Source of the DNA: Tubulanus polymorphus | Lineage: Eukaryota > Animalia > Nemertea | Length of the DNA: 64,000 bases | Assembly: GCF_964204645.1 (NCBI RefSeq) | Contig: NC_134035.1 | Span: 6,967,101 to 7,031,100 of the forward strand | Reading direction: 5' to 3' | In this document: positions 13,006-56,052 of the stretch, piece by piece | How positions within the stretch are numbered: the first letter of the stretch is position 1 | How the letters are laid out: every line of letters begins with the position of its first letter | Translations under genes and position numbers: made by a program | The notes under the pieces: model-generated | The model's database searches: none | The model's input: the letters and a program-made list of their open reading frames with translations, nothing else | What the model was told of the DNA's origin: nothing

Positions 13006-14827
13006 TTAATCTGTCTGTATCTGTCATCTATTACCAGATTGTAAGAGTGAATGAAAGATAGTGTGATTGGGTGCATGTTGGGTGAAGGTGTATGACTGCA
13101 TGTGTGTATGAGTTGAGTGAATCGGTGTATGCTAGGGGATTAGAGATTTTATAAGCCTTCATTGGCTTCATCTAATCTCCTCCACAGTATATTAAAACAT
13201 TTCATTTTTGTATATCTCTTTATGACATGTTGTAATTTTATTGTGGAAATAAATTTATTATTATTTATACATCAAAACTGAAGTTTTCCCTTTCATTCAA
13301 AAACTGAATTTATATTGGCTTTAGAAAAGTTATTGTTCAGCCTGGTTCTAAATCCTCATTCGACAAACGACCACAACGATGCACAGTTCCAATACGCTCA
13401 TTTATTTACAATCAGAATACCGTATTGCTTGAACGACTTATCGAGAGAGTGAGTGTGGTTGGCTTCAAAGGTACAAAAATACAAAATTAGACAAGAACGT
13501 TAAAAAGGCCAAACTTTAGTTTGTAATTCAGCAAATCTAAATTGATATTAATACTTACACTAACTATGCCGTACAAGGGGTATATAGAACCAGACTGACG
13601 CCTAGCCAAGAATTCACGGTTTAAATACAGTGCTGGTCATAATCGTGAAAAATGTTGTAAGTTCGCGTAACAAATAACAATTGCAGGATTTAATACGCTT
13701 CGAGCACAATACAATCACACTACTGAGCGTCGAATACATAATACAAATAGCTAAAGAAGTACATTAAATCATCTGATTGGGTATTCCGCGAGAGTACAGC
13801 ATCTTCGCATTTCTGGTAATTTCCATCAAGAAAATTCCTCACTCGTATTGTTGTCAAGAAATAAAATCCGGGCTGGCGACGAATCGAGCAGAGACAATAA
13901 TCTACCGATCCTCTCTCAGTTAGTGTAAACCGGGAACTCCGCAGTTTCTATGAACTACTTGCGGATGTATCAGTGCGCGAGCACCTGTCAGGATAATGAT
14001 GGGGATAACACTTCATTGCCGGGTAAAACCGATATAGACAATTCACTGACAGGTAGGTGTTCATGTGCCTTAAAACTTTCCATAATTCATCAAAATTTTT
14101 GGAACCTTGGCACGACATGCTATGGGCAAATGACGCGTTACAGACACATTTATCGGATTATCAGTTCTATTAGGATTTAACATTATGGGACTATATCCGT
14201 GGCAGTAGAGATACTACGGCAAGATTTTTACCAGCGACGACCCCTATATTGTCTTCGACCATTGAAAGAACGTTGATACATAGAACTACTTCATACAAGC
14301 AATAATTGAGTTTCTGCCTCTGGTAACAATTCAAAACCTCGGGAAACAATAAGTTACCTAAAATCTGACAATTGCATGTTTTAACATCACAACATCATTG
14401 TTTCCAAACATTTTATTTGACACAAGGGGGTAAAAGTCAACCAAGCCAACAATTGCAATGCCCCAATTTTGTCCTTTTTTTAAGCCTGTACACTCTGCAA
14501 TAACTATCATATTCAGTGTCCTTCTCTTTTGCAATAATATAAGGAATCTTGTAATATAAGCCATGATGATTTCTCCAAATATGATACAATTTTAACCATT
14601 CAAGGAAATGACAACATCCATAACTTTTTTATAAGTTGTACCTTTGTATTAGTAATCAACTTTTTCAACTACAGTACCGACATTAGGAGTATAACAATCA
14701 ATGACACCAACAACACACAATATGTCATTGCAGTGAACCGTTAAGGTCAAAGGTAATTATGCAACATCAACTGTGTCATTTTAGAAGCTACGGTTATTAT
14801 GGAATGGTCAACAATCACACGTGCTAC

Positions 14828-15183
14828 GTGTCACTAAACCTAAGACCCATAAACCTAAGACCCGACTCTAAATCATTATTTGTGTACTTTAGACTATTCA
14901 AAATGGTTCTAATATATAGATATTAGTTAAAATGATCCATCGATGGCCTATTTAAATTTGGTTCATTTATCAGAGACGAGATATTTGGTGGTCTTAGGTT
15001 TATGGGTCTTAGGTTTAGTATATTATATATAGGTGTCACTAAACCTAAGACCCATAAACATAAGACCTGGCTCTAATTCGTTATTTGTTTACTTTGGACG
15101 AGATATTTGGGGGTCTTAGGTTTATGGTTCTTAGGTTTAGTATATCATATATAGGTGTCACTAAACCTAAGACCCCCTAAACA
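14828..15183. repeat. Tandem array (~2.3 units) of a small MITE-like unit with internal inverted repeats
   Basis: GTGTCACTAAACCTAAGACC at 14828, ~15033 and ~15155, paired with GGTCTTAGGTTTATGGGTCTTAGGTTTAGT in the first two units. Confidence 0.7.
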
Positions 15184-15505
15184 TCTATTCAATATTTATA
15201 GTTGGTTCCACCCCCCGCTGCCCTTACCCCCGTCACTCACTACGACCCTCGAGCAGAGGAGGTAGTCGTATTAATTTCTTTTTCCCCTTATCATCTGCGG
15301 CGCGTAGCGCGGAGCCCCGCTGATATCAAAAACTACTAAGACAAACACTAATATTTATAACAGAGATCGACCGACCCGACCGTATTATCGGAATCCGGGC
15401 TAAAAAGGAGCGTCGATGGTTTTTTATTAATGAATCATGTTATGTGAGGCAACTAGTTCGTTATCGGCTAGCGCGTTTTGTTCTTCGTACATGCCTACTA
15501 GCTCG

Positions 15506-16820
15506 TTATCCGCTAGCTCGTTCGTTTGTTCTTCGTACATGCTGGCGTAAAAATCTCGGGACAGTTTGGCGTTCTTGTTTGAAATAGCGTTCTCTATGGG
15601 CTTCGTCGTCGAGTAGTTCCATGATGTCCATCGCTCCGTTGTCGTTGATTTCTTTGACTAGTTCTACGAGTATCTCCTCGCAGACCGCCGGCGAAATGTC
15701 GTACTTCGTAGATCCCATGTCGATACGTCCTTTAAACCGTACCGCTAGAAATCTTCTTTCCGCGGCTTCTAGAGCTATGGTGGCGGCGAATTTTTCCATG
15801 GGATCTCTTTCGTTGGTAGTTATCAGAGTCATACACGGCGGGTTGCTCTGTTTCGTCGAATGCACTTTAGCTTCCCACGACGATTGGTACATGGCGAGTA
15901 TCATCGATAGTAGCGCCGAATTGTGCCAGAACGAGTCGGACGCGTCGTCTACTTTGAATACTCTGTGACCGTTCGACATCTCGCACGCTCCTACCCCTTC
16001 GCTATCGTTAGGCATTTGCGAGCTTATCAGGTCGGGAAATAATATTCTCGCCAGTAACGATTTGCCGGCTCCGGCGTCTCCGTAAAAAATTATATGCGGC
16101 GCTCTAGTTATCACGCTCATTCGTGCTTCTATTACCGCGTTCACTAGCACTAGTAATAATTCGTGGTGACCGAGTAGGCGTCCGTCCCACGTCGCTTCGG
16201 TTACCAGTCCCAATATTTGTTTTATCAATATCACCCCTCCTTTCGGGCTCAATTTGACCGTTTCCCGTTCCCGTTTTTTCTTCAGCAGTTGCGCGCCTTT
16301 ACGAACGCGCGGTATTACGCTCAACGGCCAGTTTTTGTAGGCGCGTCTTATTTTCAATTCTTGGACGTTATAGCCGAATTCTTTTACGATTCGCATCGCC
16401 CATTCCGACGATCCGGGTCGGTGATCGTATTCCGCGTACAGTTCTTCTACTCTTGGCGAAGAAATCTTCGTTGACTTTCGCGTTTTGGGTTTCCAGATGT
16501 TGCCGCAATTCGAGCGGTATGGTTTCGGCGTGTTTATACATATATTGTATGTACGCGCCTAATTTCTCGGTCGGTTTCACGTACTCGTTCGCCAACTCGA
16601 TACCCTTCTCCGTCAGTAGTTGTCGTATGGCCGATTCCGATTGTTTGTTGGCCACACCGTTGTCTCCTTTTTGCGTTATTATTACTCCGTGGGCGAAACC
16701 GTCTCCCGGTTCTCGCGGGCCGATGTGTATGCGTACGTCGCTTCGTCCGATACGCGCTTCGAGTCGTACCGATTCACGGTTGCTCGTCGTGAACGACCAG
16801 TTTCTGGCTCTTGTCGACAT
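15506..16820 (-). CDS. rep: Rolling-circle Rep (HUH endonuclease + SF3 helicase), ~437 aa, one frameshift near 16450
   Basis: Motif I ARNWSFTTSN, motif II-like FAHGVI, motif III YIQYMYK; Walker A GDAGAGKS, Walker B FKVDD, motif C LITTN, Arg finger ERRF; the helicase frame is open upstream of its ATG (RVEELYAEYDHRPGSSEWAMRIVK) and overlaps the endonuclease ORF. Confidence 0.88.
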
Positions 16821-17035
16821 GTTCGATTTTCTCTGTAGTCGAATAATCTTCTAGCTATTTCGGTGATGCGCCTTTCGCGAAGTACCCGATTCTCTAGAGC
16901 GCCGTGTTTTATAACCCAGGTATTAGTCACCTCGTCTCTTATCGCTACGAAATCTGCCGTCCTTCCCATGGTATAACCGCGCCACTTGCGTCCGAATAGA
17001 TAACCGGATACGATGAATAGGAAAACGACGATCAT
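16682..17035 (-). CDS. Small viral ORF (117 aa) with N-terminal hydrophobic segment, overlapping the Rep start
   Basis: ATG 8 nt after the capsid stop; MIVVFLFIVSGYLFG then RKWR; fills the gap between cap and rep. Confidence 0.5.
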   Translation of the reverse strand: MIVVFLFIVSGYLFGRKWRGYTMGRTADFVAIRDEVTNTWVIKHGALENRVLRERRITEIARRLFDYRENRTCRQEPETGRSRRATVNRYDSKRVSDEATYAYTSARENRETVSPTE

Positions 17036-17043
17036 AGCTCTAT

Positions 17044-18140
17044 TTATATTCTGTTCTTGTGTAATATCTTATACTCGACCTCGGCCGGTATGTGTATTTC
17101 GGTGGCCGCTACGGCTAGGTTTTTACGAATGGAGTGGTTGTAAATGCACAGCTGAGTTATCAGGGCGCAACTGTTCCACAGGCTGTAGAAGTGTTCGTCG
17201 TACCAATTATCTTTCGACCCTATGTCGACCGTTCTTATAGTCTTCGTCGGATCTGTAGTACTCGTTATTTCGCTACGCAGTACTCCTACCGGTATGTTCA
17301 GGGTTACGCATCCCAGTCCCATGTCGTGGTTCCTGTAACTGCCCTTTTGCGTCAAATGGTTGGCGTCGTGATAATTGCTGCCTGCTACCGTTCGTTTCAG
17401 GTCCCAATCTACCGCCGTCCGTAGCCAGGCTATGGGATTTTGCGGCGCGTTGCTATTGTTCGCCCCCCCCCGTCCGATATAGCCCCTTCGGTCGACAACG
17501 GGAACAGGGTTATTTTCGCGTCCAATACTTTGAATTGATCGTACAAGTTAAAGAACGCCGGATGGTTATTGGGGAATACTTTCCATCCCGGAGTTTCGGT
17601 TAGATCGAAGCAGAAGCTAGTCATTTGCGACACCCTAACCTCCGCCTTATCTCCGTAACCTCCCGAACTCGGATCGCTGGACCAGCCCGTGAACGTTAGA
17701 TACCCTCGCTTAATCAGCGACGTCTGGTGATAGTTTTCCGGTTTTAACGTCGTGTGCGCCGCCATGTCTTGCGCGTTTCCGTAGTCTTCTCCACCGCCCG
17801 CGCTTCTTCTTGCCCGTTTCATCGGGGTTTGTCCGTCCGTGGTTTCGTCCGCCATCGCCGGGAATAGCGCTCTCTTGGTTTTGAATACAGCTGATGTTAA
17901 TCGCGCACCGAAACCCGTTACACCGTTCGCACTTTCCAAGAATTTCTGATCCGCCGAGTTGTATCGCAGGTACGGCGCCCATGAACCGTACTTTTCTTGA
18001 AGTTCCCCGTATTCCTTATCGTGTTGCCTGCAAACTTCGTCTATTCCTTCTCCTCGCTTATTAGAGATATCGTTGAACGGTCCGCAATGAGGTAACCCGG
18101 GTAACGTGTATCCGTGTCTTTTACGTTTCAACGCGGGCAT
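17044..18140 (-). CDS. Capsid protein with N-terminal parvovirus-type phospholipase A2 domain, ~365 aa, one frameshift in a G9 run (17463-17471)
   Basis: KRKR basic motif, LPG..HCGPFN Ca loop, DEVCRQHDKEY catalytic HD, PYLRYNSADQKF; then FNLYDQFKVLDAKITLFP and terminal EVEYKILHK resembling CRESS single jelly-roll capsids; adding one G joins ORF 17430-18140 to ORF 17044-17355 with no stops. Confidence 0.82.
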
Positions 18141-18455
18141 TTACCTATATCCGCGGAACTCTCCGTGTCTAATACCAAAATGTGTAGCGCGGCCTTCCAC
18201 GCCGATAAAAAACCATCAACCCTCATTTTTACCCGGGACTCGGATAATTGGGTCGGTCAGGCCAAATGATGAATAAATAAATGAATTATGAATAAATACT
18301 AAGATGCAATCGGTCCCTGGAGGCGAAGCCGACCTTGCCAATGTTCCCCGGAGGCGAAGCCGACCTTGCCAATATTTATTTTGCCAATATTTATAGTTGG
18401 TTCCACCCCCCTGCTGCCCTTACCCCCGTCACTCACTACGACCCTCGAGCAGAGG

Positions 18456-18843
18456 TATATGTAAAATATATAAAAAGTAAAATAGAAGAGAAATATTTTG
18501 AAGGATCTGGTTTAATGTTTGATGAAATAATATTTATGACTTTACATATGTACAATACAAGAATATAATAAATTACCTAAATCAAAACCAATAGATGAAA
18601 ATAATTTATCATATTTTAAAGATGATAATACATGTATTACCATTTAAAACTAATGCTGTTATAAATGTACATAATTTTGATGATAAATGTTTTCTATGGT
18701 CTATTATTAGTTGTTTACATCCTGCAACTGATAATATTTGTATAGTATCAAATTATAAACAATTTAAAAATAATTATAAGATAGACAATTATCCTGTTAA
18801 AATTAAACAAATACCAAAAATAGGAGATAATAATTTTGAAAAT
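18456..18843 (+). pseudogene. Polinton/Maverick-type protein-primed DNA polymerase B, N-terminal fragment
   Basis: FEGSGLMFDEI, AVINVHNFDDKCFLWSIISCLHP, YPVKIKQIPKI; very AT-rich; continues at 41313. Confidence 0.72.
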
Positions 18844-18870
18844 ATAGCTGCAAAGCAGCGATAACTGCAC

Positions 18871-19148
18871 AGTCTTAGAATCCTGTTCAACGGTGGATTT
18901 CGACAAAGCATTTGATAAGGCACAACATTAGCCATTACTAAACAGGCTATTAGGATACAGTATGAATGATAGGTCGCCCTAAATGGCTCAGCAGTTATCT
19001 CTGAACGAAAACTTGCGGCCGAAGTCAACGGAACGCCTCATCTTGGAATAAGTCGGTCTAACTAGTGGAGTCACGCAGGGTAGTATCCTAAGTCATCTTC
19101 TGTTTAATGTCCTGACAAATGACATACACAGTAATCCAAAATATACCA
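18871..19148 (+). pseudogene. LINE RT fragment inside a HINE unit; second copy at ~37798-38075
   Basis: VDFDKAFDK...WLSSYLSERK...SGVTQGSILSHLLFNVLTND; both copies directly adjoin the HINE 3' terminus. Confidence 0.7.
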
Positions 19149-20678
19149 GACCGAGTAAATTTCCAAAACGACCTTAACACGCTGTTCGACCAAAAAACTT
19201 AATGTTCCGACAAGAAAATCTTGTTCGAAAAAAAACAATTCTGTTTGATCGAACAATACGCTTTTTGTTTGAACCAAAACTTTTCTTCATTCTGTCAAAA
19301 AATGTGTTCGAATAAAAAGCTATGTTATTGTTGAAATGAAAAACTTTTTGTCCCGGCAAAAAAATTTGGTTGAGCGAAAACAATTTTTTTCGAACGAATG
19401 TTTGAATGAAAACAATTCGGTTCGATTGAATGAAATACCTAATACTTTTGGTTCAGAGAAAAAACTTTTTACAATATGCTTGTTCGATCGACAAACTTAA
19501 TGATCTCACAAGAAAATTCAGTTCAAACTAAAACGATTCTGTTCGATCAAACGATTGTTCGAACGAAAAACTTTTCGTTTGGACAAAAAAGTTTGTTCAA
19601 TATGCGTGGTTCTAACGATTTTTTCAAATTGGTTCAATCGAACAGAATATTATTGGTTCGAACGAAATAGATTTTGTTCCAACGAAAGAATTTTCAAGGA
19701 AATGGTCTTTTGAACGAAAAAAGATTGCGATGCGATGCGATCCTCGCGTTGCATCGCAAGTTGTTTCTGCCAGTCGCAAGAGCGCGTAGGTCGGTTGTGA
19801 CAGTCGTGTCGCGTCGCATCGCAAAAAGTAGTCGAAAGGGAGCGTAGGTCGATGAGTCGTTGCGACACAATCGTCGCTGGCGGTCGCAGTGAATGGCGTC
19901 GCAGTGAGTCACAAGCCGTCGCAAGGCCGACCTATGCCCGGCTAAAGTCATTAGGAATTAATGAAATACCAGTTTCATTTATGATGAAAAAACTCAAATG
20001 AAAAGTCTGGCTTGCTGTATGCTCAGACGAAATTTTCAAACAAGGTGCCCGTGGGCACAGTGAGATTCAGCTTTGAAAGTAAATAGTCATGTGCCTGACA
20101 AATTGTCATGGGATTATGACATGTTTCTCATAAAAAGAAGAGTGGTTGACCCTCCACTGGACCAAGTAACCAAAAATTGATTGAGGGAACTTATTTGGAC
20201 CAGTGCCTGCTATGATGTATGAATGAACACTCAATTTCTAGTGTTTGCACGAATTATGATTCTGGTTTCATACTATCATTTTGGCCTTTGCAAAGCTGTC
20301 AGTTACAACGCATGAAACTGGGGACCAAGCAGCAGCAACAGCAGTAGTATATTTTTCTTTATTGCAACCCTCGGAGGTAAATGTGCTACAGTCGTGGGAT
20401 TCTTTTTCGTCTGTAGTTTCCGTGTATTCATCATCTGAAAAAAATAATGGCAAAAAAAGTTAACTCATGTGAATAGTAACAACTTTTCTGGTTATCATTG
20501 GTGGTATACCTTGCTATTGCTTTAAAGGTTTAAACTCAATATACTAAGTTACGTAGAATTTGAATGGAGCCATTAATTTCAATTAGTAGCACATACATTA
20601 TTTGGTTTATGGTATGCAAGCAACTGCATTAAGGTAGGACCAAATGTGTTTACCACTTCAGTTGCAACACAGGAATTC

Positions 20679-21247
20679 GTGTATGGTAAGTAGTGAAGAG
20701 TTAATATCAGTGTATGGTTAGTGATAAAGGGTTAATATCAGTGTATGGAAAGTGGTGAAGGGTTAATATCAGTGTATGGTAAGTGTTGAAGGGTTAATAT
20801 TAGTGTATGGTTAGAGGTGAAGGGTTAAACTCAGTGTATAATAAGTGGTGAAGGGGTTAATATCGGCGTATGGTAAGTGGGGAAGGGTTAATATCGGTGT
20901 ATGGTAAGTGGGGAAGGGTTAATATCGGCGTATAGTAAGTGGTGAAGGGTTAATATCAGTGCATGGTAAGTGGTGAAGGGTTAATATCGGTGCGTGGTAA
21001 GTGGTGAAGGGTTAATATCGGCGTATGGTAAGTGGTGAAGGGTTAATATCGGTGTATGGTAAGTGGTGAAGGGTTAATATCGGTGCATGGTAAGTGGTGA
21101 GGGGTTAATATCGGCGTATAGTAAGTGGTGAAGGGTTAATATCAGTGCGTGGTAAGTGGGGAAGGGTTAATATCGGCGTATAGTAAGTGGCGAAGGGTTA
21201 ATATCAGTGCATGGTAAGTGGTGAAGGGTTAATATTAGTGTATGGTA
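20679..21247. repeat. 30-bp minisatellite, ~19 copies (GTGTATGGTAAGTGGTGAAGGGTTAATATC)
   Basis: Tandem repetition read directly. Confidence 0.95.
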
Positions 21248-45968: not shown

Positions 45969-48286
45969 CAAATAATGATGATTTTCAATTAAAGAGATAT
46001 AAAGGCGCGATTCCATATTCATTTTATAAATCGCATAATGATTTTAACATAACTGAATTATTAAAATAACAATTCTATGATGAATCAAGAATCGAATATG
46101 TTAAAGATGGCGTTTATAATAGATCATTGAATATTTGGAATCATTTCAAAATAAAAAATCATGGACAATTAGTAGATTTATATTTAAAGCCAGATGTATT
46201 ATTATTACCTGATTTGAAAGGTTTAGGGATGTAAATCTAAAATATTTTAATATTGATCCATGTGATTGTTATTCTAGCCCAGGTTTAACTTGGGACTGTG
46301 GTTTAAAATTTACTGATATTAAAATGGATTTATTAACAAATATAGATCAATTATTAATGTTTGAAAAATCTATAAGAGGAGGTGTTTCAGGTGTATTAGG
46401 TGATAGATATTTCAATGTAAATGATTATCCTGGATATAAGTTATTATAATATAGATGCAAATAATCTATATGGTTGGGCAATGATCGAACCACAACCTTA
46501 TGGAGTATTTCAAATAACTGAAATTTTACAGCACGAAAATGTTGATAAATTTGATTGGAAGAAAATAATTCTAGATATTGCAGATGATTCAGATAGTGGT
46601 TACTTTTTTGTTGTAGACTTGGAATATCCTGAACATAAAAAATTTAAATCTAGAAATCTAGCATACTGTCCTGAACAGTAAACTGTAACACATGAAGAAT
46701 TATCAAATTATCAAAAAAGAATTAAACCCGATAATCATATTCATACAGAAAAGTTAATGGTAACTCAGGAAATAAATATAATTATGTAGTACATTATAGA
46801 ATTTTGAAATTCTATTCGAATCAAGGAACTATTCTAAAAAAAGTACATAGATATATTTCATTCAGTCAATCTAAATAGTTCGAGAAATATATAGATTTTA
46901 ACACCAAACAGAGAACTAAAGCTAAAACTGATTTCGAGAAAGATTTTTCCAAACTAATGAATAATGCATTCTATGGTAAGACTTGTGAAAATATTCGAAA
47001 TAGAAATGATATTGAGTTAGTTTGTAAAGGTAAAAGAATTAGACATTTACAAACATATCCTAAATTTATTGGTAACAGAATATTTGATGAAAGTTTAGCC
47101 GTTGTTAAAATGAAAAGAACAAGTATGAAGTTTAATAAACCTATTTATGTTGGAGCATCAGTTTTAGAAATATAAAAATTACTGATGTATGAATTTTACT
47201 ATAACGTATTACAACCATTTTGGAGAAAAGCATATAGAAATCTTATATTTTGATACAGATTCTTACATATTAAAGATAAAAACTAGTAATATAACAGATG
47301 ATTTAAAAACATTAAAACATCATTAGGACGTCGTGGTAACACGACGTCCTGTTGGAATCGTGTAAGTTAGTTGGTTAAGACGTAGATAATTTCTCGGAAG
47401 TGACTGAAAGCTTGGTGATATAACTTGCACATTATTTTAGTCATGAATTTTAAAGGATTGAGATTTGTTTCTCGTGGAATTCTATGCGGCAATTGCTGAG
47501 AAATTTCCAAAAAACATGCGATTTTGGCCCGTTTTGGTTGTACGTCGTGGTTGAAGAGTTAACGCTATGCTGTTGTTATGGGATACCGCAATAAAAACAA
47601 ATTATACAGATAATGTTTGATGGAGATATAAATATTTATTAATAAAAAATATATAGGTTTTCAATCGGCACAAATTGGTGGTGTTTAATAATTTATTTGC
47701 GGGACTATTCTCGCTGGACATGAAGTGGAGTAGTCGGAGCAGTACACGTACACGTGCGCCGTTTTCCAAGAATCCGTAAGTATTGTTCAATTTATTTTGT
47801 GAATTGTGTATCTCACATGTCTCAAAACCTCACACGCTTGCACTGCTTTGTGATGGAATATGTCCATCAGTCGTTTTCTATGTTGTAACTGGAGGGTGCT
47901 GCCCTCTCTCTCTCGAAAATACAGAACAATAGGTGATTGTGTTAATATCTTTTGTCCGCCTTTTTACTGGTTTTTGGGTATATTCCGAGTCGATATTTGG
48001 AGGAAACTTCTACTGTGGAACAGGCAGAATAGGACCTCGTTACATCTGGTGGCAGCGTAGTGGGATTTGATTGTGAAAAAACCAGTTGAAATTGAGTTGA
48101 AGCGGTGAACACGTTTTTCTCCGTTTAGTCTGTGTAAATTACTGTTACTTTTTGTGTGTACTTAACGTATTTTTTTACCTACTTCGTAATTCCTAGTACA
48201 TATTTAGTATTTTTAAGTGCCTGTTTCCCCTACATTTATTTGCGGTCCTGTATTTTCTGTGTCATTTATATAAAAGAATAGTAATT

Positions 48287-49405
48287 ATGTCGGATGTTGA
48301 GAATGATGTGTGTGAGCCCTTGGCATTATCTAGGCCTATGTCACCAACGGCCGGAGCTGCACATCATGACCTCCTGGTTAGTGGGGAGGGTAACCTCTCG
48401 TTAAAACCAAAACGTGGCCGTCCAACGAAGACAAAAGCCGAAAATTTGAAAACATCTGAGGATTCCATCCTCCAGCGACTGACTGAAGTGATGGAGAGGG
48501 TCGTGACGAGAGATGCACCCACCACGAAAATGCACAATATTCCGGCACCCAAACCCTATACCATGGGACACAATTTCCGCGTTTGGCTCGAAAGGTTTGA
48601 CGCGTTCGCTGACCTGGCCCAGATTAGTTCTCGCATCAACGGGGGCGAACAGCGTAAATCACACCTGATGATGCAACTTGACCATGAGGCATACCAGGCT
48701 GTCTCGAACCTACGTCTCGACTCGAGCCTGTCGTATGATGATTTCTGTCGGCGGCTATCATCCCGTTTCCAACAAACAAAGACTGTGGATGACTTTAAGA
48801 TGTTGTTGAAAGGGAGGGACCAAAAGACAACTGAATCTGTGGAACGCTATTCCGACGAGTTAGCAGAGCTGGCAAGGAACGCATACCCTGGCATTGCCTT
48901 CGAGCTGCAGGATGAATTGGCCAAAGACCAATTCCTTAAAGGTAATAGCCTACCCGTCTCAGCGAAGCAGTCAATGTATGCGGCCCAGCCAAGTTCGTTG
49001 GCTGCAGCAGTCGCTCAAGCACGGACTCTGGAAACAGCGAGACGGTTGACTGAGGGCACGACTCATAAACAAAAAGTATCCGTTAACCAGACCCAGCTCG
49101 ACTCGACTAGCTCAGCCATAACCAAACAACTCGACGAATTGAAGTCGATGATGGGAACGCTGATGACTCGAGTAGGCCATTTGGAAGCAGTTGTCTCTGG
49201 TAATGGCAATCGTCGACCACCCGCCGATGACAAATGTTGGCGTTGCAGGGATGCAGACCACCCCAAAAACTTGTGCCCACAAGTTAAATGCTATAATTGC
49301 GGGGGGAGTGGTCACTATTCAAGTAACTGCCACCTACCTAAGGGAAACCAGGGAAACGAGAAGCGGGGTTTTCAGGGGGGCAGTGGAAACCCCATCAGGA
49401 AATAG
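48287..49405 (+). CDS. gag: Gag with C-terminal zinc knuckles
   Basis: WLERFDAFA, QKTTESVERY, DQFLKG; CWRCRDADHPKNLC and CYNCGGSGHYSSNC. Confidence 0.92.
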   Translation: MSDVENDVCEPLALSRPMSPTAGAAHHDLLVSGEGNLSLKPKRGRPTKTKAENLKTSEDSILQRLTEVMERVVTRDAPTTKMHNIPAPKPYTMGHNFRVWLERFDAFADLAQISSRINGGEQRKSHLMMQLDHEAYQAVSNLRLDSSLSYDDFCRRLSSRFQQTKTVDDFKMLLKGRDQKTTESVERYSDELAELARNAYPGIAFELQDELAKDQFLKGNSLPVSAKQSMYAAQPSSLAAAVAQARTLETARRLTEGTTHKQKVSVNQTQLDSTSSAITKQLDELKSMMGTLMTRVGHLEAVVSGNGNRRPPADDKCWRCRDADHPKNLCPQVKCYNCGGSGHYSSNCHLPKGNQGNEKRGFQGGSGNPIRK

Positions 49406-49414
49406 TCCCCCCTG
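49351..49414 (+). promoter_or_regulatory. Programmed -1 ribosomal frameshift signal (G GGA AAC + pseudoknot)
   Basis: Heptamer 49351-49357 in gag phase, 7-nt spacer, stem 1 GGGGTTTTC/GGAAACCCC, stem 2 CAGGGGGG/CCCCCCTG; the -1 frame is open into pol. Confidence 0.8.
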
Positions 49415-52400
49415 TACCGCTGTATATACCCCCCGCAAGACGTAGGAAAAATCGGATGAATACGGCAAATGGTCTAACGTGCGATGCAAGTAGAGATGCA
49501 CCTATTGATGGTTACCATCATACTAGCCCCACCACCGTGAGACCATCAAACCATATTCAAATGATATCGAGACCATCAAACCATATTCAAACGACACCTC
49601 AAGATGGATATGTGGTTGCTGGCCCGGCATGTGATTCTAGTGGAGATACACCTACTGATGGTCCGCATCCTACTAGAACCATCACTGTTAGACCACCACA
49701 ACATACCCAAAGTATAGAAGAAAATCGACGTGACCCTTCGGAGAACAGTGAGGCTCCCAGTCCGGCTACGGAAAACACTTGTCACAAGTTGCGCGACACC
49801 AAGGTTCAAACAACAGGGACAGAACCAGCCCAGACGAGCTTAGTTACAAACATCGGAACAGTGAGGTTCCACGCCTCGGGCCTTTTCTGTGATGCCGTAG
49901 TAAATGACCATTCGAAAGCGGTGGTACTCCTGGACACTGGTGCCTCCTGCACAATCATTAGAGGTTCGGTATGGGACTCTAGCAGCCCGACTGGTGAAGC
50001 CGCTGCACTGAGGCCAATCGAAGGAATCGTGACAACGGCTACCGGTCAGCCAATGGAGTTACGTGGATTAGCTGATGTATGTCTGAGAGTTGGAACTGAA
50101 GAATTTCATGTCCCCATGATCGTCAGTGAGGATTTGGCACAAGACTGCTTGCTTGGAAGTGATTTCTTCGAGAAATATGGCTGCAACATAGATTACCGTA
50201 ACAAAGTGCTCCGCTTCGGAAGCCTCAGCGAGGTGCCTGTCCGCCAGAGCCCCAAACGCGCGAGCGCTTGCAGGGTGTTCATCAGTAAGAGCCAAATCAT
50301 TCCAGCTGGATCCGAGGTGGTGGTAAATGGATACATGAAACGGAGTTATGCTCATAATAATTCGACCTCAGGGATGATCAGCAGCTGTGGACGGAATAAT
50401 TTTTGCACTGGGAAAACACTGGTGGTACCGGAGGCAAACCAGATACCGGTTCGGCTGGCTAACTTCTCGGATGAGGCTTGTAGAGTCGACAGGGGCCAGA
50501 CTATTGGTCTATTCTGCCCCCTACAGTCAGTTGACATCATGACTGTCGACGACCATGCTCAAAACCCGTCAACTCCAAAAATCCAGCTGCAGGGTGGTGA
50601 CAATACTGAATTCAAGGACCTCTTGAGAGAATTGAAAATCGACCAGCTTGAAATCCCCACTGACATGAAAACACAGCTTGTTGACATCATACGGGAGCTA
50701 AAGTCAGTATTCTCGATGGGAGACTTTGACATTGGTCGAACAGATTCGCTTGAATTCGAGATTGACACCGGTGACCACCCACCGATAAAACAACATCCCC
50801 GTCGGCTACCCCCCGGTAGGAGAGCTTTTGTTGAGGGGACGACCAAGGAGCTTTTAGAACACGACTTGATCCGGCCATCCACCAGCCCGTGGTCAAGCCC
50901 AATAGTTCTAGCGAAAAAGGCCGATGGTTCCCTGCGTCTATGCTGCGATTACCGCCGACTCAATGACGCAACAGTCAAAGACGCTCACCCATTAGGTCGA
51001 ATAGACAGTACCCTAGAGGCTTTATCGGGCGCAACCTGGTTCTCGTCCCTCGATTTAACTAGCGGATACTGGCAGGTCCCAATAAAGGAATCAGACAAAC
51101 ATAAGACCGCATTCACGACTGAAAACCATCTATTTGAGTGGAATGTCATGCCGTTTGGAGTCTGTAATGCCCCGGCGTCATTCAGCAGACTGATGGCAAT
51201 GGTACTGGATGATGTTGCATGGAAAACATGCCTTATCTACCTGGATGATGTAGTGGTGTTTAGTCATGATCTACCAACCCATCTGACGCGATTACAAGAG
51301 GTATTTCGTTGCTTTCAGAAAGCCGGTCTCAAGCTAAAACCGAGGAAGTGCTCGCTTTTCCAGCGGCGCCTCAAGTTTTTGGGGCATGTAGTAAGCGAGG
51401 CCGGTGTCGAAACCGACGGTGCCAAATGCGATAGAGTCAGGGATTGGCCGACCCCAACGTCAGTTACCGAACTGCGTAGTTTCCTTGGTCTTGTGACATA
51501 TTACTCGCAATTCATCAAGGATTTCGCCGACTTGACAGCCCCGCTACACCGCCTTACGAGGAATGAACCATTCGTCTGGACATTCAAGCAACAACTAGCG
51601 TTTGACGAACTGAAAGAAAAGCTGACCAGCTCCCCTATCCTGGCATTCCCAGATTTCTCGGAGGGTGCTGGAGAGTTCATTTTGGACTGTGACGCCTCTA
51701 ACTGGGCTATCGGAGGGGTGCTGTCACAACTACAACACGATGGTTCTGAGAGAGTGATCGAGTACAGTAGCCGCACGCTGAAAGGTGGAGAGGAGAACTA
51801 TTGTGCCACCAGGCGCGAAATGTTGGCCTTGGTTGACATGATTGATCACTTCCGCCACCATTTACTAGGCAGGAAATTCAAAGTTCGCACAGACCACGCA
51901 GCACTCAAGTGGCTACAAACCTTCAAAAACCCTGAGGGCCAAGTGGCTCAGTGGCTTGAACGCCTGTCGGAATATGATTTCGTGATCGAACATCGAGCTG
52001 GAAGCAAACATTTGAACGCAGACGCCCTGTCTCGCATCCCTAAGAAACAGAGGAAACATGGGGACTGCCCAACTTTTGGTGACACTGGTCCATCTATATA
52101 CCAGGTGACTGCAAAACATCAGGGCGATTTGACAGCGCACTCCACTGGCTTGTCCAGGAACAAAATAATCGAGGCGCAAGTAAATGACCCCGAAATATCA
52201 GAAATTAGGGAGTTCTTGGCCGGAGATGGGGTCAAGGACAAGAAACGGCTACAACGGTGTGGTAGAACAGCGAGGAGCCTCTATAGTCTGGTTGAGCGTC
52301 TAGAGCTTTTAGATGGCATTCTTGCGCTTAAACCACTTCCGGGGGCTACCTCAACGAGACACCGAGTGGTACTACCCATTTCACTGACTGATGGAACCAT

Positions 52401-52534
52401 AGGAGTCATGAGACGAGAAGATACACAATATCCGTGTAAGAAGATAACAAGAGAAATCCCACAATAAGTTCAGCCAAAACGAGAAACTTGAATAGAAGAG
52501 TTATATATATTTGCGCAACGTTTCGGCTAAAGAC

Positions 52535-53776
52535 ATTATTCCTGGTAACGATAGATTCATTTCGTTTGATGCTAGTTCTCTTTTTACCAATGTTCCTCTT
52601 AGGCCTACCCTTGATTTTCTTAAACGGAAACTTCCTTCGTTGGATTTCAATTTTGACATTCCTACTGATTGTATTATCGAATTAATTGAACTTTGCACCC
52701 AGAACTCCTTTTTTAGTTTCAACAATTCTTATTTCGAACAGGTTTTTGGCATGGCTATGGGGAACCCGCTTAGTCCCATTCTAGCAAATCTTTTCCTGGA
52801 ACACGTTGAAACCGAATTACTACCCCTTTACACAGATACTCTCCCTAAACTTTGGTTACGATACGTTGATGATATTCTTGCCCTTATACCTTTTGACTTT
52901 GATATTGATCAATTTCTCACATTTATTAACTCTTTTTATCCCTCCTTGAACTTCACATTTGAATTGGAAGTTGATGGGAAAATCCCTTTCCTTGATGTTT
53001 GTATACACAATTGTTTGTCTTGTCTAAAATTCTCGGTTTATAGGAAACCTACCCACTCTGGAACATACCTACATTATTTCTCCTTCACCGCTCATAACAT
53101 TAAACTTAGTGTTGCCCAAAGCTTATTCCTTCGCGCATTAAGGATTTGTGACCCCCTTTTCTTGGATGATGAACTAACCCAGATCAAGACCTCTCTTAAT
53201 AAATTAGCTTACCCCGACGACATTTTGAATAAAGCTCTCTTGAGAGCCCGTCGTTCACATTTCAGTCACTCTCAAGGGACCCGCGCGCGTAAACAGCCTA
53301 TTATTGTACCTTTTGTACCTTTTCTGGAAAAATCTAAAACTCCCCTCCATCTCTTAAACAAACAACTCATTTTTACTTATAACAACAAACTTAGTCGTAA
53401 TCTTACTCATAACTCCCCCAAAATTGAACCCCTGAACATTGGTGTATATAAAATTCCTTGTAAAGTTTGTAACAAAATATATATCGGCGAAACCGGACGC
53501 GATTTACACAAGCGCATTCGTGAACATAAGAATGATGTAAAGAATTTTAAGCCTGAAAGCGGTGTTGCTAATCACGTATACGAAACCAGCCACAATTTTG
53601 ATTTTGAAAATGCCTCCATAATTTTCCCCTGTTCAGAAAAGATTAAACGACACATTATGGAATCGGCCCTGATTATTGAAAACTTGAAAAATTGTGTTAA
53701 TTTGAATAACGGTTTTTCCCCCCACAACATTTTGATCTCCAAATTTCTCGCTTCTCTTGTACCCCCGTTATACTAA
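52535..53776 (+). CDS. Penelope RT + GIY-YIG endonuclease (N-truncated)
   Basis: SFDASSLFTNVP, GMAMGNPLSP, RYVDD, YRKPTH, GVYKIPC..C..IYIGETGR. Confidence 0.92.
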   Translation: MIPGNDRFISFDASSLFTNVPLRPTLDFLKRKLPSLDFNFDIPTDCIIELIELCTQNSFFSFNNSYFEQVFGMAMGNPLSPILANLFLEHVETELLPLYTDTLPKLWLRYVDDILALIPFDFDIDQFLTFINSFYPSLNFTFELEVDGKIPFLDVCIHNCLSCLKFSVYRKPTHSGTYLHYFSFTAHNIKLSVAQSLFLRALRICDPLFLDDELTQIKTSLNKLAYPDDILNKALLRARRSHFSHSQGTRARKQPIIVPFVPFLEKSKTPLHLLNKQLIFTYNNKLSRNLTHNSPKIEPLNIGVYKIPCKVCNKIYIGETGRDLHKRIREHKNDVKNFKPESGVANHVYETSHNFDFENASIIFPCSEKIKRHIMESALIIENLKNCVNLNNGFSPHNILISKFLASLVPPLY

Positions 53777-54097
53777 TTCCCTCCATTGTTTTGCCTTTAT
53801 CATACGTAGTTTGCTTGTTTCCACTCACTCACTGATTATCGCCTTTCATGTTCCTTCTCTTTGTTTTATTTGATTACCCCTTAGCTTGTCCTCCCGTTTT
53901 AATCACTTTAGCTTGTGTCTTTGTTTATTAATTACTTTAATCTACATTGCCCCTAGTTTGCCTTGCTTACTTTAGCATTGTTTTCTAGTTGTTATGTCAT
54001 TACTTTAATCTATTCCCCTTTCAATATTTTAATCACTCACTCTGCTTCTATTGTTTTGGTCTTGTATAAATATCTTGTAATATTCTCCTGTACTCAG

Positions 54098-54140
54098 TAC
54101 GCCTGATGATGGCTAATAGTCTTTAGCCGAAACGTTGCGC
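54098..54140 (+). ncRNA. Minimal hammerhead ribozyme in the Penelope pLTR
   Basis: CTGATGA (54103-54109), stem II GGCTA/TAGCC, GAAAC, palindromic ACGT stem III, short stem I CGC/GCG. Confidence 0.75.
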
Positions 54141-56052
54141 AAATATATATAACTCTTCTATTCAAGTTTCTCGTTTTGGCTGAACTTATTGTGGGATTTC
54201 TCTTGTCATAGGAGTCATACATCAGGGATTTCCCGGGAAACATCTCAGTACCAAAAAGACAGAGTGCAAAATTTAAGGAAAGATTCTGGGTATTAGGCCT
54301 CTCAGCTAGGGTCAGGGATTTTGTTCGGGGCTGCAAAACTTGCCAAGAGTGCAAGTCCCCGTCCAAACTACCAAAAGCCCCAATGATGTCTACACCGGTA
54401 GGGCGACGCTTCCAGCGTGTACATATAGACATCGTGGGCCCATTACCGAGAACCCGCCGCGGCAATGTCTACATTCTTGTGGCTCAAGATGCATTCACTA
54501 AGTGGCCCGAAGCATGGCCAATTCGCACGGAAAAGGCCTCCGTGGTGGCACGTGCCCTTGTGAACGAGTGGGTCACCCGTTACGGCTGCCCTGAATCCAT
54601 CCATTCGGTCAAAGGCACGAACTTCGAGTCGAAAGTTTTCATGGAGATGTGTAGGATCTTGGCTATTGAAAAGACCAGAACCACTGCCTACCATCCTATG
54701 GGCAATGGGCAGGTGGAAAATTTCAATAAGTCCCTGAAGGCCATGCTGACTACAGCCGTCAATGAGTGTGGAACAAACTGGGACGAGGAACTACCAGCGT
54801 GTTTGATGGCATTTCGTTCAAGCGTCCAGCACTCCACTCTTGAAACGCCGTTCTACTTGATGTACGCCGAGGAAATGTCACTACCAATCGACATCAGCGT
54901 AGGCTTGCCCGAGGACCACCAACCAAGGACTAAGTATGGCATGGACCTCTCTGACCGCCTCACTAAGTCACACAACATTGTTCGTGATCGACTAGTGATG
55001 GCACAAAGGCGTCAGAAAATGGACTATGACCGTTTCGCAAAACGCGGGGGTTACAAGGTCGGGGATCGCGTGTGGCTGATGGCCATTTCTTGAAGAAGGA
55101 CGAGGCATCTAAGTTCCACCGGAAATGGAAAGGGCCTTACGTCGTGACCGAGAGACTATCGGAGGTGAATTACAGGGTTGTCCTGGAACCAGGCGCCGAT
55201 CCGAGGGCGGTGAAGAGAAAGCGGGTTGTGCACTTCAATGATATGAAACCGTGCTTCCTGTCTAGTGAGACCGTGACCATAGGTAATAAAAAACCTAGAC
55301 AGGAACCGGTTAAAACGACCGATCCCGAGGAGCAACCAACCCTCAATGACGACGAGGGGGAGGAAGATGAAGACTGTGTCTGGACACGGTCACACCCCGA
55401 GACAACGGCAGTTATTCAAGAACCTCTTGTAACAAACCCTACCCAAAACCATCGCGAGCCTCCTACTCAAAACCGCTCCAAGCCTGGGCCTTTGAACATT
55501 ACAAACACTGAGGGGCACAGAAGACTCAGGCCCAGAGTAGGGATCAGGCGCCCTAGTCGGTTCGTAAACTCATGTACAGTCAATAACGATGATTCGCTAG
55601 CCAACCAAAATAGGGCCTCAGACCCTTTGGTGGATCCAAACACACTTATAGGACCTCCAGTCGCCTCGGACAAGATTGAGCAGAACAACATTTTTGATAT
55701 AGAACTGATCCAAAATTGCCAGAAATGTCGCGAAGTTCGGTCCCGGATTAACATGAGGAAAGGCTACTGGTTAGAAATGGGCCGGTACCTTAAATCAAAG
55801 GGTTAAATCCTATATATATATTTAGTACCCTTGTATATAACCCTGTATATATATTTACTTAGTTTTAGTAGACAGTTTATTATCATTTGTAACTGGTGGT
55901 GACTAGGATTTCAGACCCCTTGCACCTCCTGACGGTATGCTTGGGACCACCCACATTGCATGATTCGGGTGGTATCTGAATGAACGGAATCTCCGCCATT
56001 TAGTCTTGTCGTTGCAGCCAACTCATGTTTTGAACTATTTATCGTTTCTTGC

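Follow-up and report, generated by a model that had tools for sequence, protein, structure and literature searches.

Introduction

Monosense parvoviruses carry the NS gene ahead of the VP gene, while ambisense parvoviruses carry the two on opposite strands; among circular single-stranded DNA viruses, HLQG and FTLNN are the motif spellings of circovirus Reps. Parvoviridae are classified by the sequence homology of the SF3 domain of NS1; most members have phospholipase A2 at the N-terminus of VP1, and their jelly-roll capsids are of T=1 type. Circular members of Cressdnaviricota have a covalently closed genome and a stem-loop origin with a NANTATTAC-type nonamer. Parvovirus genomes usually measure about 4–6 kb, with a 3053-nt exception, and the SwaBA megaparvovirus 1 lineage has a phospholipase A2 (PLA2)-bearing ORF upstream of NS1, a VP1 without PLA2 after NS1, a coding region of 6.4 kb and complete endogenous copies in invertebrate genomes (PMC13426907, in the portion available). 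The Oomyviridae (Lineavirales) have linear ssDNA and mix parvovirus-like with circovirus-like traits; their Rep falls in Cressdnaviricota, and they probably infect stramenopiles (PMC12451638 and PMC4419787, as excerpted). Clusters of PLA2 and of Rep proteins have also been reported among unclassified circular DNAs in PMC7000223, whose text gives no gene maps. Head-to-tail densovirus concatemers reside in tapeworm genomes (PMC6880638, available part), and integration of such DNA is thus in itself ordinary.

Here, we analyze a virus-like element in a 64,000-nt stretch of the genome assembly of the nemertean Tubulanus polymorphus (NC_134035.1, positions 6,967,101 to 7,031,100), which we refer to as the window and whose positions are used throughout. 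We think that this element is probably an inherited insert of 3266 nt that arose from a head-to-tail replication product of a capsid-first parvovirus-like ssDNA virus and was end-joined by host repair. Its terminal repeat would then be an ordinary integration scar that marks the near-complete genome of an unnamed virus group, and the element would tie this group to animal hosts; it shows a capsid-first layout together with a helicase predicted to be of the parvovirus/papillomavirus type.

Results

A direct repeat bounds slightly more than one unit of virus-like sequence

The first-pass annotation of this DNA had noted that positions 15190..15259 recur at 18385..18455 with a single 1-nt indel, that both copies end at the hairpin CCTC-GAGCA-GAGG, and that an outer TACGAC/GTCGTA stem extends this hairpin in the left copy alone. 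All of this proved accurate: a blastn comparison of positions 14700–18700 with the window matched the two copies in 70 of 71 columns (98.6%) with one gap, at offsets of 3195 and 3196, and detected no third copy of the 70-nt repeat within the window. Exact repeats within the element reach 43 nt, compared to a maximum of 17 nt and a mean of 11 nt in 200 shuffles; the terminal repeat is far above chance. Between the left host junction at 15189/15190 and the right host junction at 18455/18456, the element spans 3266 nt, composed of a 3195-nt unit plus the repeat, or 1.02 units. It stands out from its surroundings by a GC content of around 50% (19–40% in the adjoining 100-nt bins) and by an observed/expected CpG ratio of 1.56 (0.84 and 1.04 in the 5 kb on each side).

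The terminal repeat sits in virus-like sequence and is viral, not host-derived; the right copy includes a TATA box at 18395 on the minus strand, which is likely the capsid promoter. We rejected the repeat as a host target-site duplication since it is GC-rich and internal to the element and since the 2 flanks share at most 5 nt. No target-site duplication longer than this was detected between them. We likewise rejected the repeat as one half of a palindromic inverted terminal repeat (ITR), given that blastn found no inverted match to it in the window.

A direct repeat at both ends implies a head-to-tail template, circular or concatemeric, of slightly more than one unit, and it fits a circle and a concatemer equally well. 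In the mechanism that we propose, the virus family would replicate like parvoviruses, with Rep nicking and unwinding hairpin ends to yield concatemers. A head-to-tail product, concatemeric or circularised, would have broken at two staggered points, 70 nt from each other within the non-coding region, and would have been end-joined into host repeats by host DNA repair without target-site duplication, and the resulting more-than-unit copy would begin and end with an identical stretch of 70 nt. It is also conceivable, though very improbable in our view, that a single linear genome was integrated and that the 70 nt are a templated insertion made during end-joining, with neither a circle nor a concatemer involved. 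Local direct duplications do occur in related loci described below (69 and 127 nt in L008; 213 nt in L016), that of 69 nt being similar in size, and both junctions of the element lie in AT-rich, repeated sequence of the kind that would suit such an event; against it, the TACGAC/GTCGTA stem reaches beyond the left repeat copy, which weakly suggests native continuity at this point, and breakage of a head-to-tail product is the simpler reading that needs only one break per side.

The element encodes a short PLA2 capsid, a small ORF and a Rep

All genes of the element lie on the minus strand in the order capsid, small ORF, Rep. The N-terminal capsid piece (17430..18140) comprises a PLA2 domain at residues 10–89 followed by the putative start of a jelly-roll-like core. 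It matched PF08398 with an E-value of 3.5e-14 (53.3 bits at a cut-off of 23.9), and its best match in the PDB was a parvoviral VP1 (9cuz, E 1.3e-13). The stretch after the PLA2 domain (residues 118–228) scored 0.94 in the Atlas against a parvoviral capsid (PF00740) cluster, with 193 shared features but agreement from just 5 of 10 top family hits, and it also showed a faint match to Circo_capsid (E 0.057). The C-terminal piece (17044..17547) was assigned by its position and a weak alignment to relatives; the 2 capsid pieces were searched separately and not as one joined frame, and the C-terminal piece by itself had no match in Pfam or the PDB. A capsid profile search returned 13 matches, all of them close relatives of the metagenome loci described below. 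The entire capsid amounts to around 400 codons.

Between capsid and Rep lies a small ORF (16682..17068, minus strand) that overlaps the Rep start and encodes a hydrophobic stretch after its first methionine. It has no Pfam match; a small ORF occupies the corresponding position in related loci.

The Rep gene is split over 2 frames. One piece (15506..16558, minus strand) encodes a helical linker and an SF3 helicase with Walker A (GDAGAGKS), Walker B (KVDD), motif C (ITTN) and an RRF motif; the other (16368 to about 16820–16850, minus strand) encodes, in a different frame, an HUH endonuclease with the motifs RNWSFT, GPRE..AHG and YIQYMYK. Searches with the helicase piece yielded 48 protein matches at E ≤ 0.001 (best E 1e-49 at 37% identity), and 22 of the 48 relatives were also matched by the HUH piece at their N-termini (E ≤ 2e-5), which makes the 2 pieces parts of a single Rep/NS1 gene. 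The two frameshifts that had been suspected in the first reading of the DNA were both borne out: the capsid frame shifts at the G9 run 17463–17471, and the frame of Rep changes within the ORF overlap at 16368–16558, which includes the position of about 16450 named there.

The frame may change a third time close to the C-terminus of Rep. The hints are a gap in the contigs of X2 and X3 (the data sets are introduced below) toward the 3' part of Rep and a 76-codon open frame (15427..15657, minus strand) ending at an AATAAA (15428–15423, minus strand; likely a polyadenylation signal), which might be the displaced C-terminal tail of Rep. This frame had no match in Pfam or profile searches and its acidity is uninformative, so that these tests gave a third change no support.

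Rep belongs to a largely unnamed family with a predicted parvovirus/papillomavirus-type helicase

We found HUH and SF3 motifs in 19–21 of 24 aligned relatives of Rep, and none of these 24 family members matched Pfam Viral_Rep or Parvo_NS1 at E ≤ 0.1. The Atlas scored the Rep family at 0.90 with clusters of DUF5906 and Cossaviricota tied. Sequence searches of the PDB with the HUH piece and the Rep profile gave chance or P-loop matches only, word-based protein searches with the helicase piece and the capsid pieces had no matches, and scans of viral contigs found no relatives of the element. When we looked up the names of 20 clusters, 18 were unnamed and one was called "hypothetical", while the last was an uncharacterised protein of Styela clava. 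This protein, P0006 (XP_039269095.1), is a Rep of the same family as that of the element, and the Styela clava genome therefore likely holds an unannotated related insert.

We modelled the fold of an intact relative (P0003, from 49 sequences, pLDDT 86.4) and did not use the single-sequence fold of the element's own helicase piece, for which the pLDDT was 37. The model aligned with papillomavirus E1 (Z 13.1, rmsd 3.5 over 183 aligned residues), AAV2 Rep40 (Z 12.7, rmsd 3.4, 179 aligned), B19 NS1 (Z 11.6, rmsd 3.6, 176 aligned) and PCV2 Rep (Z 7.8, rmsd 3.4, 126 aligned). Among predicted viral structures, the top match was NS1 of IHHNV, with CRESS Reps lower down. Sequence identity of Rep to these structural matches is 10–15%, and the searches mostly test the helicase; the best match for the HUH domain was pMV158 RepB (Z 7.8, rmsd 7.6, 140 aligned). 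Judged by the modelled fold, the helicase is of the parvovirus/papillomavirus type, with AAV Rep and papillomavirus E1 tied in Z, and the model leans against a Rep of CRESS type.

Hairpins in relatives and the question of a circular genome

A single metagenome scan yielded 22 related loci with five data-set prefixes, which are not independent since they collapse into 10 groups at 90% and 2 lineages at 65%. Of 17 entries for related Reps, 8 come from contigs of 2.9–4.4 kb. In 7 of the 22 loci, a PLA2 capsid is encoded on the same strand as Rep, and in 6 of those 7 it is upstream; in the second lineage, the ORF upstream is long, lacks PLA2 and aligns only weakly to the others. Of 20 loci examined, 11 carry palindromes of 50–279 nt after Rep, in both lineages, and 3 of the 9 loci without one have less than 250 nt past Rep. 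Ahead of the capsid, a palindrome was found in one of 8 loci (51 nt). Six palindromes picked for folding reached z-scores of -10 to -32. The loci are often rearranged: L007 has the order Rep, hairpin, capsid (a head-to-tail join), L008 and L016 have the direct duplications given above, L011 and L012 fold back into Rep, and the end of L009 is similar, in direct orientation, to what lies upstream in L013. The head-to-tail join and the duplications in relatives speak for a head-to-tail template of the element as well. Separate from the viral hairpins, an imperfect palindrome of 700 nt was observed in the flanks of L004 (514–1203) and L006 (505–1195), possibly a host fold-back element.

The ends of the element itself are different. 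No long palindrome was detected there, all 8 of 8 folds having z-scores from -0.76 to +1.08, and the argument for hairpin ends consequently rests on relatives that are around 30% identical in Rep. The stem-loop TACGAC-CCTC-GAGCA-GAGG-GTCGTA (15241..15270), which starts inside the left copy of the repeat and extends past it, is weak, with a folding energy of -6.1 kcal/mol (z -1.56) that was equalled by 19 of 200 shuffles. A NANTATTAC nonamer is absent from both non-coding ends, and nonamer-type matches in the element are confined to coding sequence at 16677 (plus strand) and 16161 (minus strand). We thus rejected the repeat hairpin as a nick origin on account of its weak fold and the lack of a nonamer; the first-pass annotation had read the repeat as a duplicated origin region.

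Smaller features are found on both sides of the coding block. It is bounded by an imperfect inverted repeat of 52 nt and 83% identity that had not been mentioned before (left arm 15376..15427, pairing with the right arm 18205..18256), much as inverted repeats of 27–36 nt bound the coding block in L014, L016 and L017. A GC-rich cluster of mini-hairpins with two GNA-loop motifs (15293..15320; region z -0.76) might be the remnant of a hairpin tip, and a repeat search revealed two tandem 31-nt units (18305..18366) with a GGC-GAA-GCC mini-hairpin in each.

The first interpretation, that a circular genome or concatemer had been integrated, accordingly holds in part: a head-to-tail template of more than one unit and a near-complete ssDNA-virus gene set are supported, and the hairpin as an origin is not supported. 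Its counter-scenario of linear related viruses and a host-derived repeat finds an echo only in its first half, with long hairpin palindromes after Rep in relatives, a helicase predicted to be of parvovirus/papillomavirus type and a repeat that is viral.

A truly circular genome would have replicated by rolling circle and left a product of 1.02 units to be integrated, with hairpin ends confined to distant relatives; we consider this unlikely, though less so than any other alternative discussed here. It would explain that the entire non-coding region is present across both ends without any long palindrome and that the arms of the inverted repeat are just 83% alike instead of being kept identical like true ITRs. 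The HUH motif spellings WxFT and YMYK, which we take to recall circovirus Reps, point in the same direction. So do contigs of X1 and X2 that begin at 15217, where the exact 43-nt block opens, and continue unbroken past 15260, as would fit a head-to-tail junction, though this start may stem from graph cleaning; among the matches listed, none showed the joint expected of a closed circle. Evidence to the contrary comes from the ends, which lack a nonamer stem-loop, from the predicted helicase of parvovirus/papillomavirus type, and from the occurrence of hairpins in both related lineages. We keep to a head-to-tail product of a virus with hairpin ends as the probable source.

The element in read data from several samples

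The presence of the element beyond the assembly was assessed in sequencing data. Four runs, which represent two samples from a single study, contained 55–79% of the sampled words. Contigs of X1–X3 and the raw reads of X5 (another sample from another study), compared over positions 13500–20000, cover the whole element, which is thus represented over its full length in samples S1, S2 and S3 from two studies and is not private to one assembly. Its depth relative to the flank at 14368–14801 is around 2.2-fold in X1 and around 5-fold in X5 (12 bins; 34–50 versus 8–9), ratios that are not copy numbers because the flank depth is possibly undercounted. The extra depth might come from further genomic copies. 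The element is present in at least two variants, with X5 showing two of them at several sites (e.g., in 22 of 36 reads at 17387). Against the window, the two long contigs of X1 show 3 and 13 gap letters within the stretches of frame change, and the breaks in the reading frames may thus be peculiar to the copy in the window or to its assembly; either a recent insertion or sequencing errors, as the first-pass annotation suggested, may lie behind them.

In the 5' part of Rep, we observed that the depth of X5 doubles at 16538–16971 (89 and 82 versus around 42), that about half of the reads diverge at 16730–16752, and that one contig of X2 reaches a depth of 499; it seems that part of the Rep gene is repeated elsewhere in the host.

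The same data bear on the idea that the locus is an assembly artefact, that is, a free or episomal virus stitched between host repeats with the terminal repeat as an assembler overlap. Both flanks are high-copy repeats, none of the read or contig matches listed bridges either host junction, and depth is greater over the element than over the flank. Furthermore, X2 and X3, both from sample S2, hold the element and have no depth on part of its left flank (14368–14801), although this locus may simply be polymorphic or the hole may result from filtering. Still, we regard an artefact as quite improbable: the 2 repeat copies differ by an indel where a k-mer overlap would be exact, the window is free of any N, the element recurs in three samples from two studies, and relatives are found in contigs with unrelated flanking sequence as well as in a tunicate genome.

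Comparison with described virus groups

With Parvoviridae, the element shares a PLA2 domain at the capsid N-terminus, HUH and SF3 domains in one protein, a helicase with a predicted fold like that of AAV and B19, and, in its relatives though not in the copy of the window, hairpin palindromes after Rep like those at the ends of linear parvoviruses. It differs in that the capsid is encoded 5' of Rep and on its strand, as in 6 of the 7 PLA2-bearing loci, in a capsid of only around 400 codons, and in the missing Parvo_NS1 match across the 24 Rep-family members. Its unit of 3195 nt also falls below the usual 4–6 kb given in the available portion of PMC13426907. Since gene order and size are unlike those of Parvoviridae and the helicase is tied between AAV Rep and E1, we did not file the element in this family.

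Cressdnaviricota, in the shape of circovirus-like CRESS viruses, have in common with the element an HUH–SF3 Rep and a small unisense genome; CRESS Reps were also among the viral fold matches, as was Circo_capsid, faintly, among the capsid matches. However, the element has no nonamer stem-loop, its capsid bears PLA2, neither HLQG nor FTLNN occurs in any of the 24 Reps of its family, and in the fold model the PCV2 helicase is a far poorer match than AAV Rep or E1. From Oomyviridae, which we could compare only by their description in the excerpted sources, it is set apart by the parvovirus/papillomavirus-type helicase of the model and by copies in animal-like DNA. The SwaBA megaparvovirus 1 lineage, to judge from the available portion of its description, shares the PLA2-bearing ORF upstream of the replication gene; here, however, the upstream gene is the capsid itself and nothing capsid-like follows Rep.

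In the main texts of freely available papers, we found no description of a capsid-first parvovirus-like group, and this lineage of capsid-first viruses with a short capsid looks new. More speculatively, it might represent a family-level group of small animal ssDNA viruses that is as yet undescribed and that branches as a sister of Parvoviridae or outside them. Such a group would be characterized by a short PLA2 capsid encoded first; some of its lineages would be linear with hairpins, while that of the window would have switched to a circular form and would persist as several inherited or episomal copies. We hold this full scenario to be doubtful. If the switch to a circular form were true, the group would connect rolling-hairpin with rolling-circle replication in living viruses, and if close relatives were circular and distant ones hairpin-ended, it would offer a direct test of the interconversion of linear and circular ssDNA replication.

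Host surroundings of the element

The element is surrounded by pieces of LINE, LTR, RT/GIY-YIG, Penelope-like and DDE transposons, and from these transposon frames we infer that the surrounding DNA is an animal genome. Next to the left junction, nested direct and inverted copies of a 30–88-nt unit form a high-copy region at 14825–15186. Right of the other junction, an 89-codon frame (18595–18864, plus strand) has very high depth and no Pfam match; it recalls an N-terminal fragment of a Polinton-type DNA polymerase. Further along, a tandem array of a 31-nt unit with strong GC skew occupies positions 20638–20992. An LTR retrotransposon with gag, protease, RT, RNase H and integrase-like frames (48197–55806, plus strand) is interrupted by an RT plus GIY-YIG frame on the same strand (52496–53776).
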